This document shows, in pieces, positions 11,625 to 18,156 of a DNA stretch of 64,000 nt. Below the pieces are notes generated by a model. It had not been told where the DNA came from. It saw nothing but the letters and a program-made list of their open reading frames with translations, and did no database searches. Position 1 is the first letter of the stretch. Every line of letters begins with the position of its first letter. Both the position numbers and the translations under genes were made by a program. Source of the DNA: an uncultured Gammaproteobacteria bacterium (GTDB lineage: Bacteria > Patescibacteriota > Microgenomatia > Levybacterales > GWA1-39-11); NCBI GenBank assembly GCA_964472415.1, contig CAYYLC010000001.1, positions 131,269 through 195,268 of the forward strand, written 5' to 3'.

Positions 11625-12056
11625 TCACGCATCTGCTGGTTGTTTTTCGAGTGAATTGTTTGGTTTTTGGAAATTGAGTCTTTCTTTCAGGAGGGTAATA
11701 ATTCCTGTCTTTTCTTCCTTGTTATTGATAAGTTTTTCAGGCAATATATCAGCTCCAACAAACGGACCTAAGATAATATCTACTTTGTTTTCTGCGACTT
11801 TTAAAACCCCATTTGTTATTGTTAATTCTTTTTTCTCTTTCGACTCTTTGTAGAGCGTGATTTTATCCTTGATGAGGGTGATAAAGTTTGTATGAAGAGG
11901 TAGAATATCAAATTCTCCATCTTTATTAACTGATGTTAAAGTTTTAATACTACCATCAAATACATTTTCATCAGCGCTGATAATAGTCACTTGGAGTTTA
12001 TTGCTCGGTATGGATTGAGCTGGAAGTTTTTTTTCGTTGTTATTTTTCGGTTCCAT
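11625..12056 (-). CDS. atpC: F-type ATP synthase epsilon subunit
   Basis: 143 aa; [42 protein letters not shown] matches epsilon N-terminal beta-sandwich; follows atpD with a 17-nt overlap. Confidence 0.8.
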
Positions 12057-12480
12057 CCGTTCCTTCCTTGGATTTTATTTTCTTTTTTGTTCTCTTATTC
12101 TTTAATTTCTTTTTGATTGGTATTTCTTCATTGGGTTTTTCTTCTTGTAAGTCTTTCGTACTTTCATCTTCTTCTACTTCGTCTTCACCTTTTGTAGCAT
12201 CTTCTTCAGTTTTTGATTCTTCATCAGGTTCTTCTTTTTCGCTTTCTTGTTCAGGGGTTGATTCATCTTTTTTTTCTTCACCTTTTACAGTGCTTTCTCC
12301 ATCTTCTTCTACTTCGTCTTCACCTTTTTCTTCATTTTCTACAGTGTTCTTTGCGTCTTTCGTACTTTCATCTTCTTCTATTTTATCTTCACTTTTTTCT
12401 TCATTTTCCTCATTTTTTTTATCACCTTTGGATTCCGGTTTTTCTTTTGATTGTGTGTTCTTTACAACTTTCACTTCTTC
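12040..12480 (-). repeat. Degenerate in-frame tandem repeats encoding the acidic tail of AtpD
   Basis: Nucleotide units such as tcgtactttcatcttcttctacttcgtcttcacctttt recur about 12150, 12300 and 12360; peptide repeats [12 protein letters not shown] / [17 protein letters not shown]. Confidence 0.6.
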
Positions 12481-13830
12481 TAAGCTACCAATGTAGAGAA
12501 AATCTTCTGGTGCATTCCCATCAAATTTTCCTTCAATAATTTGCTTAACATCCTTCACCGTTACTTCAAGTGGGATATACACCCCTTCTTTACCAGTCTG
12601 TGCTTTTGCTACTGCAAAGTATTGGGTCATATAGTTTTTCAAGATCTTTGATCTCCTATAGGTGGTTTGGTCTTCAGCAGAGAGTTCTGATTCTCCTACT
12701 AGCGACACAATTCTTTCTAGTGAGGATGCTTTTTTCAATAAATTAGTTGCGAGAATATAAGTCTTATAATGTTCTTCACCTGCAGTATCGATATTGAGAG
12801 TGGAGGACGTTGAAGAAATTAGATCAATTGCAGGGAGTCTTCCTTCTTGATATATATCACGAGAAAGTACTACTGAAGCGTCAAGGTGAGTAAAAATTGA
12901 CTGCACGGCATAGTCAGTAATATCATCTGATGGGACATAGACAGCCTCAATACTCGTAATCGATCCTTTGTTAGTAGAGAAGAGTCGTTCTTGGAGATTC
13001 GCCATTTCAGAGGAGATGGTAGACTGGTATCCACCCTCTGAGGGAATGGTGTTCATAAGCGTTGCAAGTTCATATCCAGCTTGTGCGAATCGGAATGCGT
13101 TATCAATAAAGAATAAAACGTCTTTTGCCTTTTCATCTCGGAAATATTCTGCTATCGCTGCACCCGCTGTTGCGGTTCTAAAACGAACTGCAGGATTCTC
13201 ACCCATTGAGCCATAGATTAGAGAGACTTGATCGAGAACGTCACTTGCTTCGAGGGTTTCTAAAAGCTCTTTTCCTTCACGAGAGCGTTCCCCAACACCG
13301 GAGAAAACAGAAACGCTTTTGTTTTCATTGAGGACCACAACGTTATGGATGATTTCTGTGAGTAATACGGTCTTCCCAACTCCTGCTCCACCGAATAAAC
13401 CTACTTTTCCACCTTTCGGGAGAGGAGAGAAGAAATCGAGTGCTTTAATCCCTGTTTCAAGAATTGTATCTGGAATAAGGACTTCTTCAAAAATTTCATT
13501 ACTTTCTAGAATTGGCCTTAATTTTTTCTTAGAAAGAGGTTTGCCGCCGTCAAGTGCAATTCCGAAAACATCAATAACACGTCCTAATACCTCATCGCCA
13601 ACTGGGATTTTTAAGGATGTTCCTGTGTTGGTCACTTCTGCTCCCCGATAGATTTTTTGAGTAGAGGAGAGGCAGAGGCAATACACAGAATTTTCGCTTG
13701 CTGATTCACTGACTTCAAGCCAAACGTCTTTATCACTTTTTAAGACTAAGACATCATGAAGCTTCGGCATTTCATCAGTCGGAAACTCTACCTCTATTAC
13801 TTGTCCCTTCATTCCTACGACTTTTGCCAT
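12040..13830 (-). CDS. atpD: F-type ATP synthase beta subunit with an acidic, lysine-rich low-complexity C-terminal extension of about 140 aa
   Basis: 596 aa; Walker [14 protein letters not shown]; DELSEED-equivalent ESELSAEDQ; after about residue 455 the tail is E/D/K-rich with repeats ([12 protein letters not shown] seen twice). Confidence 0.93.
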
Positions 13831-13836
13831 TTTTCT

Positions 13837-16220: not shown

Positions 16221-16684
16221 AAACTTAGGGGTAGTTCAGCGAGCTGTTTTCTTAAGGATTTATCCTTGAATGTCCCTTTTATCCCAATCTGAATTCCTCC
16301 TATTATTTTAGGGTTAACGTGTATATTCAGGAGATATTTCTCCTTTGAATTAGCGGTAATCCAACTACCAATCTTTTTAATCTGTTGATGGGTAGGGTCT
16401 ATTGCGATAGTAAGATCGATTACGGGAATTTGAGAAATTTCTTCTCGAATATTTGTAAGATAGGTCCTCAACTTTTCATGATTATTGAGAGATATTTTTT
16501 CGTTTTTGATCGCATCGAGGAGGGCTTCAGTGAATTCATATGAGAATATTTTTTGAATTCTTTGCATATTTTTCTCATTTTTATAAAGACTTGCTATAAA
16601 CTCTTCTATTTGAGTATTAAGTTTGTCAGCTTGTTTTTTTGTGTAAAGTATTTCTAAGATAGGCAGATATTTATTTTCATTCAT
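16217..16684 (-). CDS. atpH: F-type ATP synthase delta (OSCP) subunit
   Basis: C-terminal IIGGIQIGIKGTFKDKSLRKQLAELPL matches the delta C-terminal signature; ORF opens at 16729 but Met at 16684 avoids overlap with atpF. Confidence 0.7.
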   Translation of the reverse strand: MNENKYLPILEILYTKKQADKLNTQIEEFIASLYKNEKNMQRIQKIFSYEFTEALLDAIKNEKISLNNHEKLRTYLTNIREEISQIPVIDLTIAIDPTHQQIKKIGSWITANSKEKYLLNIHVNPKIIGGIQIGIKGTFKDKSLRKQLAELPLSL

Positions 16685-17363
16685 GGTCAGAAAAAAGTCC
16701 CTCAGCTTTTGCTTCTTCCAGCGAGGCAAGGATCAATTTTTCGTGTTCATCTACTGGAATGCTTTTCCCAAGCAGATCAGTTGCAATTTTTTTAATTAAG
16801 TTCTTGATTGACTCATCAGCTTTTTTCATTTCTTTTAACTTGTAGTCTTTAATTTCTTTTTGGGCTTTTTCAAACTCCAGGTCAACTTTATATTTTAGAT
16901 AATTTTCCAGGGAAATAGTTTGTCTATCAAGAACTTTTTGAAGTTTTGAAATTCCTAATTTACCAGTGGATTCCATTTTGCTAATGGTTTTTTCTGCTTG
17001 TTTTTCGTATTTCTTTTCAAGATTTTCGAACTCTGCATCAAATGTTTCTGAAATTTCATTTAATTGTAATGTGAGAATATTGGCGTGTTTTTGAGAGGTT
17101 TCTTTAAGAATATCTTGTAGTTTCTTTTCGTTCAGTTCTTTAACTGATTTCGTTTCTTTAATAATCTTAGTGGCTTTTTCTAATGATTCTCGCAAAAGCT
17201 TTTCAGAATTTTGATGAACGAGCTCCATAGTCTTTGCGGAGTGTCGGTGGAGTCTATCCTCGATTCTTTTAATCTTTTTTTCCTTTTTTCTCAATTTTTG
17301 CCAAAAGGCAAAAAGTGCTATTGCACAGATAATACTTATAATAATAGGCAGAATAATAACCAT
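16677..17363 (-). CDS. atpF: F-type ATP synthase subunit b
   Basis: 228 aa; single N-terminal TM helix (MVIILPIIISIICAIALFAFW) then a long charged coiled coil; position between the c-like gene and delta. Confidence 0.7.
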   Translation of the reverse strand: MVIILPIIISIICAIALFAFWQKLRKKEKKIKRIEDRLHRHSAKTMELVHQNSEKLLRESLEKATKIIKETKSVKELNEKKLQDILKETSQKHANILTLQLNEISETFDAEFENLEKKYEKQAEKTISKMESTGKLGISKLQKVLDRQTISLENYLKYKVDLEFEKAQKEIKDYKLKEMKKADESIKNLIKKIATDLLGKSIPVDEHEKLILASLEEAKAEGLFSDHE

Positions 17364-17364
17364 T

Positions 17365-18156
17365 TTAAATTCTTAGAATAACGACTGCAATGCCGATTCC
17401 CGAGACAACGATGACTACTGTAATGATAACATTTAAGGCGATGCCAAATCCAATTCTTTTAATAGCTAGTGGATTTCTTCCAAGGGCATCCACACCTCGT
17501 GCGGCAATTCTCCCAAAAGTAAAAAAGCCAATGATGAATGAGAGAACAATAACTATTCCTGCAACAACATACTTAAAGACTGTTAAGGGCTCTTCGGAAA
17601 GTGCTGCAGCTGAAAGATTGGAGATATCAGAGAGCTTTGACTGTACTGTTATTTTAGGATTTTGGTAACGAATGTTGATAGCTACATTGATCGGTCGAAC
17701 CTCATCTTTGTTTGAGCTTGAGAAATCTTCGGTAGCATTACCGATAATATATCCTGACTTGCTTGCCCTCATTCCGACTCCTCGTATTGAGGATGTTGTG
17801 ATAGGGTCGCCTTCTTGAATGTCTCCATTTTCAAGCGATACATTTACATATGCGTTACCGGTTGATACAACAGGGAATCTACCACCCTCTTCACCGATAT
17901 GGATAAGTATGGCGGGATTTTCAGCCACTACTCCTACCATTGCAGGATCGTAAGGTGCGCTACTAAGCATAAAACCGCCAGTTCCTTTCGAGGAGATAAT
18001 ATTTCCAGTTCGTATATCATTTCCATCGATAAGTATTCGATTTGCGATTCCATAAGATACTGCTGCATAGGCATGGGTGGCAAAGACTAGGAAGAGTAAG
18101 CCTACCAGTGAGAAACTGAGGAGTGTATGTGAGAGACGCATTTTTAGCTGAGACAT
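17365..18156 (-). CDS. Secreted/membrane protein in the atpE position: signal peptide, about 180-aa extracytoplasmic domain, and a C-terminal subunit-c-like two-helix hairpin lacking the conserved carboxylate
   Basis: 263 aa; [31 protein letters not shown] signal; C-terminus ..[63 protein letters not shown] resembles the c-subunit helix1-ARQP-loop-helix2 but helix 2 has no Glu/Asp. Confidence 0.5.

Follow-up and report, generated by a model that had tools for sequence, protein, structure and literature searches.

An F-type ATPase operon without subunit a, whose c-like subunit lacks the ion-site carboxylate and carries a tail-spike-type chaperone domain

What can an F-type ATPase do when its operon encodes no subunit a and its only c-like subunit has lost the ion-binding carboxylate? 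The question is raised by a 64-kb window (the whole stretch of DNA analysed here, out of the 303.5-kb source contig CAYYLC010000001.1), in which eight close-packed genes on the minus strand (11625-23053 in the open reading frame (ORF) list), a giant fibre gene first and epsilon last, overlap by 4-17 nt or lie 1-7 nt apart (Table 1). The complex they encode is very probably something other than a conventional ion-coupled ATP synthase, and the reading that we favour, with middling confidence, is a derived F-type rotary ATPase without ion coupling, acting as a surface actuator driven by ATP hydrolysis and not as a synthase or pump. A sequence-only reading of the same DNA had reported that the operon lacks atpB, which is borne out here: every gene has been assigned, none is subunit a and none is left over that could be. 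That reading had called the genes from epsilon to b conventional; their presence and tight packing hold, while the adjective does not, as b, delta and epsilon have diverged and beta ends in an extra tail. The giant gene does adjoin the c-like fusion gene as described, although the spacer from the giant's stop codon to the fusion's ATG is 7 nt and not 8. No terminator-like site was predicted within this spacer, and a promoter and terminator scan of the operon returned no more matches than shuffled sequence.

Judged from its residues, the F1 head looks complete and catalytically competent, in agreement with the earlier impression that it is intact. The Walker A motifs, the catalytic Glu and Arg residues and the alpha Arg finger are all present: compared with E. 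coli (41% identity for beta and 31% for alpha), beta keeps K155, T156, E181, R182, E185, D242 and R246, and alpha keeps K175, T176 and the Arg finger R376. The single changed beta residue in this comparison is the adenine-stacking Y331, which is Leu here, and the DELSEED loop reads SELSAED. Beta scores 471.9 bits against the atpD equivalog TIGR01039 (cut-off 462.85), alpha scores 363 against TIGR00962 (under its cut-off of 484), gamma and epsilon match Pfam families while staying under the NCBIfam equivalog cut-offs, and delta matches Pfam OSCP (E 3.3e-9) and, again under cut-off, TIGR01145 (E 1.8e-10). Because the subunits other than beta score as F-type yet below their cut-offs, we regard this F1 as divergent. 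The C-terminal tail of beta, 136 amino acids (aa) long (approximately 12043-12450, minus strand), is rich in Glu and Lys (41 Glu, 29 Lys and 13 Asp); it is missing in most relatives (beta is 458 aa in loci L002, L006 and L087), with extended betas turning up sporadically, for example in L065 and L047. An ORF antisense to the tail (12068-12496, plus strand) is its low-complexity mirror image. For epsilon, the N-terminal beta-sandwich is the sole recognisable part of the window's protein, and the orthologues, with a median length of 90 aa, consist of the beta-sandwich alone. The relatives thus have no C-terminal helical domain, since about 90 aa is too short to hold one; in bacterial F-ATPases that domain inhibits hydrolysis.

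A peripheral stalk is also present, delta being recognised by OSCP and b by profile matches to structures. Although the 228-aa b-like protein alone has no Pfam match, a profile built from 36 orthologues found ATP synthase subunit b chains as its best matches in the PDB (9o19_X, E 1.1e-8; Chloroflexus, 3.5e-6; PS3, 1e-4), and Pfam ATP-synt_B matched 3 of the 36. By these profile matches we take it to be a divergent subunit b, about 70 aa longer than that of E. coli and in a conserved position between c and delta. When its transmembrane (TM) helix was checked across the orthologues for a conserved Arg, acidic or polar residue, none was found, and because the helix has no conserved charged residue, b is no obvious stand-in for subunit a.

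The c-like fusion is where the operon departs most from a synthase. Its homologues (170 in the protein database, a few labelled WWE3, Levybacteria or Patescibacteria, and a few annotated as 'subunit c') align in three parts: a signal peptide (a hydrophobic N-terminus and a small-x-small motif, then A or Q), a conserved domain some 135 aa long and, at the C-terminus, the hairpin. An AlphaFold2 model of the window's protein (predicted local distance difference test score, pLDDT, 87) has a beta domain at residues 33-165 and helices at 190-227 and 229-262. Pfam gave no match for the window's own fusion, b or giant, and PHROGs none for fusion or giant; homology emerged through family profiles and structure. 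The NCBIfam subunit C model matches the fusion at E 0.006, and Foldseek aligned the hairpin with F-type c subunits of Chloroflexus, chloroplasts, Spirulina, PS3 and mitochondria at target TM-scores of 0.75-0.88 and root-mean-square deviations of 1.3-1.8 Å, so that the identity of the C-terminus as an F-type c hairpin is confirmed by sequence profile and by fold alike. The topology is predicted to be that of a normal c subunit, with the N-terminus outside after signal-peptide cleavage, the loop inside and the C-terminus outside. No second c gene was found in the window or in the loci fetched from relatives.

The loop of the hairpin reads G-R-N-P-L-A without exception in 31 of 31 aligned sequences, and on this ground contact with gamma and epsilon has, we argue, been retained. 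The ion site has fared otherwise. In HMMER alignments to the c subunits of A. woodii, Spirulina and Chloroflexus, the ion-binding Glu faces a hydrophobic residue (V247 in the window). Among 247 distinct helix-2 sequences, with positions numbered after the loop Pro, the ion-site position +18 is I, V, L, A or S in all 247 and never D or E, and no D or E occurs anywhere from +11 to +27. What is conserved instead lies five residues nearer the cytoplasm: position +13 is Asn in 239 of the 247 and His in 7, and Thr is common at +17. As far as sequence conservation can tell, then, the gamma/epsilon contact site is strongly constrained while the ion-carrying chemistry is gone. One might still imagine a non-canonical ion pump, in which the nearly invariant helix-2 Asn (or, in a few, His) and the Thr move H+ or Na+ together with the b helix or another partner, hydrolysis building a membrane potential in fermentative cells; candidate phyla radiation (CPR) ATPases have generally been proposed to run in reverse and make a proton motive force (PMF) (PMC11665869). 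We consider this unlikely, given that most members have no ionisable group, that the Asn is five residues off the canonical site, and that neither the b TM helix, with no conserved polar or charged residue, nor anything conserved nearby offers a candidate half-channel. We know of no rotary ATPase that transports ions without a ring carboxylate and a stator Arg.

This arrangement is a lineage-wide system and not the quirk of one organism. A scan for the loop motif in GTDB species-representative genomes returned 303 stretches, of which 300 encode a relative, and 80 of these approximately 300 loci were fetched, each with 10 kb on either side; most are labelled Roizman-, Levy-, Davies-, Shapiro- or Woesebacteria, Microgenomates or WWE3, many labels being generic or evidently wrong. 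The order fusion-b-delta-alpha-gamma-beta-epsilon recurs in nearly all 80, and the same operon lies on a 1.23-Mb contig and on a 945-kb chromosome (L072); closed or near-closed genomes that carry it include OZ246395.1, CAWJTN010000001.1 and WWE3 RAAC2. In the fetched loci the N-terminal domain is present on 87 of 87 ORFs that bear the hairpin. Losing subunit a and the carboxylate would inactivate a normal enzyme, and the operon might on that account be taken for the functionless, decaying remnant of an ATP synthase. This is hardly credible, since the ORFs are intact, catalytic residues and invariant motifs are kept across sequences only 35-50% identical at about 300 loci, and paralogous copies and new fusions exist.

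Neither the operon nor the rest of the 64-kb window yielded a subunit a, and none turned up in the 10 kb on either side of the homologous operon at about 80 related loci. ATP-synt_A has no match in the window or in the approximately 1.1 Mb of sequence flanking related operons, and no ORF resembling AtpB was seen in the 80 fetched loci. A six-frame scan of the window, of low sensitivity for atpB, recovered a single c hairpin and no sequence resembling AtpB or AtpE of E. coli, and phmmer searches with E. coli AtpB, AtpE, AtpF and AtpI (window ORFs, 85 loci and six-frame segments), likewise of low sensitivity, gave chance-level scores. No window protein of 200-300 aa has five or six TM helices. 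Among window ORFs with at least four predicted TM helices, seven scanned ones are GT87, PMT_2/PMT or polysaccharide-synthesis proteins and one more is YfhO; seven others (499-788 aa) were left unscanned. We also considered a multi-TM replacement for subunit a near related operons and rejected it, as the candidates there (prepilin peptidases, an M50 protease, EamA, DUF347 and genes with no Pfam match) are not conserved.

An ordinary ATP synthase from a split operon, one of two options in the sequence-only reading, with subunit a and possibly c encoded elsewhere and the fusion an accessory or unrelated membrane protein, would explain these absences, and split atp operons are known from other bacteria as a matter of general knowledge; the E. 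coli AtpB search is, moreover, insensitive to very divergent homologues. We nevertheless judge it very unlikely. A c homologue and b already occupy their canonical operon positions, the a-less order is kept at about 300 loci, the ATP-synt_A profile found nothing in the window or in the flanks just described, and a closed WWE3 genome has been reported without recognisable a, b or c (PMC3812714). Against it, too, is that the operon's c homologue has lost its ion site everywhere and yet kept its contact with F1.

If ions are not moved, the remaining clue is the domain to which the hairpin is fused. Clustering of the neighbourhood proteins unexpectedly pooled the fusions with the giants, and the two share a domain: BLASTP aligns fusion residues 73-148 with giant residues 1292-1372 (33% identity, E 2e-10), a hidden Markov model of the fusion's N-terminal domain matches giant residues 1260-1381 (E 4.6e-20), and hhalign pairs the two domains over 134 columns (99.5% probability, E 2.9e-23). 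In the giants the domain is of the intramolecular-chaperone type found in phage tail spikes. Pfam Peptidase_G2 (PF11962, 'IMC autoproteolytic cleavage domain') matches 5 of 8 giant homologues (best E 9.6e-8), though the window giant's own copy has no match at E<=1, and the giant-domain profile matches, from its first residue, the released C-terminal fragment of the phi29 preneck appendage (3gqh_A, E 1.4e-4) as well as the 'chaperon domain D4' of a tailspike. Foldseek comparison of the fusion model leads to the same place, its PDB matches being phi29 gp12 (3suc) and capsid decoration proteins of phages, and its BFVD matches including a 'preneck appendage protein barrel', a tail protein and tail-fibre-like models (E 1e-12 to 1e-10). 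In phi29 and K1F tail spikes, such C-terminal domains act as trimeric auto-chaperones and are removed by cleavage once folding is complete (PMC3357383).

The two copies differ at the cleavage site. The giant's domain starts with A-D-L-A-E-N-Y (aa 1253 onwards, DLAE being aa 1254-1257), which aligns with DFAEYF of phi29, so by alignment it carries an autocleavage-type D-x-x-E motif at the domain start. The corresponding Asp and Glu face G36 (invariant) and N38 (variable) in the fusion, and because both catalytic residues are replaced we regard the fusion domain as a non-cleaving copy of a tail-spike intramolecular chaperone. Signal peptidase would create the N-terminus of the fusion domain at about the place where tail-spike autocleavage would fall. 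The chaperone domain of phi29 gp12 (3gqh, 3suc) is homologous to those of giant and fusion; in phages it is C-terminal, self-cleaved and discarded, whereas in the fusion it is N-terminal, has neither catalytic residue and stays permanently attached to a membrane hairpin. An exhaustive phmmer search with the domain found 5261 representative proteins (E<=1e-3) in three architectures, two of them fusions, either about 260 aa or 430-560 aa long, and the third giants (700-4800 aa) in which the domain lies 300-500 aa from the C-terminus. The last approximately 60 aa of the giants (18167-18350 in the window) form a conserved block, '...F(N/D)W(W/F)(I/V)V(N/K)', which in 4 of 8 weakly matches the Pfam C-terminal domain of K1 capsule-specific polysaccharide lyase (best E 8e-5) and is a second phage tail-spike-like trait of these proteins. 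Giants that bear the domain adjoin the operon in the window and in L006, L007, L008, L038, L041, L051, L077 and L078, in at least three different arrangements; a giant with the position and orientation seen in the window occurs in L006, L041, L051 and L030.

From an F1 that looks competent, a stalk, ring subunit and loop contact that have been kept, the lack of an ion site and of subunit a, and a crown domain shared with the fibre, we infer that ATP is hydrolysed and its energy passed outward. Gene content, domain homologies, carboxylate loss, catalytic residues and lineage-wide conservation supply the data for this model. The machine would have kept the alpha3beta3 head, the gamma/epsilon shaft, the delta/b peripheral stalk and a c-type membrane ring, and would have lost the ion path, that is, subunit a and the membrane carboxylate of the ring subunit. 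Exported ring subunits would display the non-cleaving chaperone domain on the outer face of the membrane. F1 would split cytoplasmic ATP, and torque or a conformational cycle would travel by way of gamma and epsilon to the ring's invariant GRNP loops; the ring would hand the energy on through the membrane to an extracellular crown of chaperone-like domains; that crown might then dock, fold, release or move tail-spike-like fibres, and perhaps neighbouring pili. The model supposes that a ring forms, that the signal peptide is cleaved, that the complex rotates and that it is physically or functionally linked to the fibre. There is no ATP outside a cell bounded by a single membrane, and a mechanical linkage across that membrane would be one means of supplying energy to such steps. 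Xiang and colleagues reportedly found in 2009 that release of the phi29 gp12 autochaperone after cleavage requires ATP, which would be a reason to connect such a domain with an ATPase. The sequence-only reading had offered, as one of two options, an unusual hydrolysis-only or surface-coupled ATPase, and this is the option that the missing carboxylate, the a-less order at about 300 loci and the domain shared with the giant now favour; its support is partial, and the carboxylate loss, the identity of the fused domain and the lineage-wide spread were not part of it.

Several observations weigh against a rotary surface actuator. The ring would have nothing obvious to turn against, the stator having neither an extracellular part nor subunit a. 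A domain-bearing giant is adjacent in only about 9 of about 55 adequately flanked loci, so the fibre link is not universal, and the adjacency may mirror the shared ancestry of a few arrangements. The search for atpB and atpE reached the operon, the window and 10 kb on either side of 80 loci, and not whole genomes. Some relatives (L068, L073 and L084) are missing b and delta, and the longer fusions described below would bring a cytoplasmic region of about 200 aa with an HTH_17 match to every ring subunit, which is hard to fit with rotation past a stalk. Continuous rotation is accordingly not assured, as fusions bearing this helix-turn-helix (HTH) would clash with the peripheral stalk.

Two other readings draw on the same observations. 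The extracellular domain might merely oligomerise or anchor the ring, the enzyme having a cytoplasmic role (regulated hydrolysis or nucleotide homeostasis) and the giant's adjacency reflecting domain shuffling. An adjacent domain-bearing giant is indeed missing in most loci, the domain is a very common module (the 5261 representatives above), and one WWE3 genome (L004) has a fusion without nearby F1 genes. We give this reading little weight all the same, for it is implausible that genomes of about 1 Mb keep an eight-subunit membrane machine for futile hydrolysis, and both the inseparability of domain and hairpin (87/87) and the invariance of the F1-contact loop speak against it. Alternatively, the complex could be a non-rotating export or assembly ATPase in the manner of FliH-FliI-FliJ, the ring serving as a platform or pore for the giant fibre or for pilins. 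F1 is homologous to FliI, FliJ and FliH, alpha and beta score 160-200 bits on FliI/SctN models, genes for surface assembly (sortase, PEGA proteins, pilins, prepilin peptidase) are frequent in the neighbourhood, and the variants without b and delta or with a fused HTH fit a non-rotating complex more easily. This too we find improbable: those scores lie far under the cut-offs (380-720), the subunits are clearly F-type with distinct alpha and beta and a delta/OSCP, c-ring lumens are lipid-plugged in known structures (general knowledge), and since fibre and fusion have Sec-type signal sequences of their own, no dedicated pore is needed.

Taken to its furthest, the actuator reading would make this a new class of rotary machine, in which a proton-blind c-ring serves as the drive shaft to a crown that folds, winds, releases or swings giant trimeric fibres, an idea we put forward tentatively and consider doubtful as it stands. 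The CPR-specific Pam pili are possibly a further target of the crown on these host-attached ultrasmall bacteria. Were the new class real, the 'ATP synthase' of Microgenomatia and WWE3 would make neither ATP nor PMF, and energy models for much of the Patescibacteria would need revising.

The operon itself has been seen before. From a closed WWE3 genome, Kantor et al. 2013 (mBio) described an ATPase operon with membrane subunits that had no homology to known ones, an independent report that fits the reading favoured here; alpha, beta, gamma and epsilon were recognisable, three adjacent upstream genes had no detectable homology, and the putative c was a TM protein common to OP11 and WWE3 (PMC3812714). 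The three genes were taken as a, b and c, with function and ion specificity left open (PMC3812714). Our assignments resolve them as c-fusion, b and delta, with no subunit a, and the WWE3/OP11 operon of Kantor et al. 2013 is almost certainly the same system. The oddity of the operon has thus been on record since 2013; in the literature searched we found no description of the missing carboxylate, the absent subunit a or the chaperone-domain fusion.

Compared with E. coli F1Fo (atpIBEFHAGDC), the genes for c, b, delta, alpha, gamma, beta and epsilon follow in the same order, the F1, b and c hairpin are homologous, and the catalytic residues and the R-x-P of the c loop are shared. The differences are that the operon here has no subunit a and no atpI, that its c has no Asp or Glu and is joined to a signal peptide and a 137-aa extracellular domain, that a giant fibre gene stands in the position of atpB, that b is longer, and that epsilon of the relatives has no C-terminal domain. 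By its F1, stalk and c fold the complex is an F-type ATPase, and at the sequence level it departs from Fo in two features, the c carboxylate and, where searched, subunit a; operons of this kind would count as incomplete in the ProAD survey of rotary ATPases. Hairpins of c type without an ion site are known in A. woodii c1 and V-type c'', as minority subunits of mixed rings that also hold active sites and work with subunit a, whereas here the sole c gene is the one without the site.

Other odd relatives of the F-type enzyme can be set apart by their models. N-ATPases (atpDCQRBEFAG) are likewise encoded by divergent F-type operons and form an extra or odd ATPase, but they keep subunit a and a carboxylate-bearing c, add AtpQ and AtpR, and differ in gene order; the alt_F1F0 models stay under cut-off here (TIGR03305, 421.8 against 752; TIGR03324, 351 against 750; TIGR03166, 19 against 100). 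So do the models for MSC_0618/0619 and MMOB1660/1670 of the mycoplasma F1-like ATPases (406 against 570, 280 against 520, 375 against 600 and 380 against 850). Because all of these models, and those of FliI type, score under cut-off, the enzyme belongs neither with the N-ATPases nor with the mycoplasma F1-like X0 ATPases nor with the FliI-type ATPases. In function it may, by analogy, resemble the mycoplasma motors of wall-less or reduced bacteria, whose alpha and beta derive from F1, which have lost Fo ion coupling and which are tied to giant surface proteins. Work by Beven and colleagues in 2012 and Toyonaga and colleagues in 2021 is said to have described these F1-like X0 ATPases, type 2 being the gliding motor of M. 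mobile and type 3 being linked to MIB-MIP. The mycoplasma clusters have no homologues of c, b or delta, whereas the operon here keeps all three. If our favoured reading is right, it would be an independent case of an F1 engine reused for surface work, this time with the c-ring kept.

According to reviews, nearly all Patescibacteria keep an F-type ATP synthase without a respiratory chain, and whether it makes ATP or pumps protons is debated (PMC11665869). Going by its sequence, the Microgenomates/WWE3 enzyme may do neither, and what it drives is probably some process at the cell surface. Metabolic reconstructions in which 'complex V' is scored as present would then change, the classing of these operons as incomplete by databases would be explained, and the ATPase genes would be linked in a concrete way to the fibre and pilus genes reported by others from their neighbourhood.

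Variants of the operon add some detail. A sub-lineage with the order fusion-alpha-gamma-beta-epsilon and an alpha of 429 aa (L068 10016-14578, L073 5628-10184 and L084 3913-6824) would be an F1-plus-ring machine with a shortened alpha and no operon-encoded peripheral stalk. Longer c-fusions of 390-540 aa (P0149, P0170, P0194, P0197, P0253 and P0225; L087 5377-6840) have an N-terminal cytoplasmic HTH of excisionase type (a faint match to Pfam HTH_17) and an extra TM helix before the extracellular domain, and they head the same type of operon; small genes for an HTH of this kind by itself (69-114 aa, '...LLTVREVAELLRVSPLTIKRWGKRGKLPA...') sit beside the operon in L015, L018, L021, L022, L068 and L073. 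Some genomes hold pairs of paralogous a-less operons (L006 and L007 in CAYVAJ01; L031 and L076 in CAYQEE01), and in CAYVAJ01 a separate giant bearing the shared domain adjoins each of the two. At L048 a second fusion gene, convergent, takes the place where beta and epsilon are expected, and a lone c-fusion lies near the start of a 536-kb WWE3 contig, JAAXWF010000001.1 (L004/L024 2821-3678), with no F1 genes within 10 kb.

The genes directly upstream of related operons vary (Rho, ComM, DprA, M23 peptidase, Fic, pilin, PEGA and NDK), a Fic/HTH gene being found there in 10 Levybacteria-type loci. Recurrent neighbours downstream of epsilon (for example at L002 17001-20178) are a PEGA-domain/beta-propeller protein (23 loci), MreB (18) and sortase (14), and some loci have type IV pilins and prepilin peptidases near the operon.

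Table 1. Coordinates of the ATPase gene cluster, parts of its proteins and nearby features in the 64-kb window
Feature	Position	Strand	Remarks
Giant fibre	18164-23053	-	1629 aa; one N-terminal hydrophobic segment as membrane anchor
Peptidase_G2-type intramolecular-chaperone domain of giant	18911-19294	-	aa 1254-1381; starts D-L-A-E (19283-19294)
c-like fusion	17365-18156	-	263 aa; signal peptide, extracellular chaperone-like domain, linker, F-type c hairpin
Signal peptide of fusion	18064-18156	-	aa 1-31; putative cleavage after ...THAYA, before A
Extracellular beta domain of fusion	17653-18063	-	aa 32-168 (137 aa)
c hairpin of fusion	17368-17589	-	aa 190-263; GRNP loop 17470-17481; V247 17416-17418; N242 and T246 conserved
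b-like subunit	16677-17363	-	228 aa; a single TM helix at the N-terminus plus a long helix
delta (OSCP)	16217-16729	-	start TTG 16729 or, more likely, internal ATG 16684
alpha	14748-16220	-	490 aa; Pfam ATP-synt_ab and ATP-synt_ab_C
gamma	13837-14760	-	307 aa; Pfam ATP-synt (PF00231), E 4.8e-26
beta	12040-13830	-	596 aa; TIGR01039 match above cut-off
epsilon	11625-12056	-	143 aa; Pfam ATP-synt_DE_N (PF02823) at aa 21-95, E 8.8e-15
tRNA-Gln	11432-11503	-	ARAGORN and Rfam; directly downstream, closes the gene cluster
HsdM-like	9407-10945	-	sequence inspection
HsdS-like	7212-8570	-	sequence inspection
HsdR-like	3154-6234	-	sequence inspection
Two interleaved extra genes in restriction-modification region	8574-9410; 6227-7210	-	

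Beyond the cluster, the minus-strand genes at 3154-10945 appear on inspection of their sequences to form a type I restriction-modification system; a pilus operon downstream of the atp genes had been considered for this region and was rejected on that account. Between the giant (minus strand) and lon (plus strand, 23333-25729), gene orientation and GC skew both flip (23054-23332), and no cluster of DnaA boxes marks this strand switch at about 23.1-23.3 kb (21 near-matches across the window, against 20 expected). The far side of the window, 27271-63985, is a run of about 37 kb on one strand given over almost entirely to envelope glycosylation genes, with many paralogous multi-TM proteins of 500-800 aa (PMT_2, YfhO and GT87) together with GT2, GT1 and a Polysacc_synt flippase.

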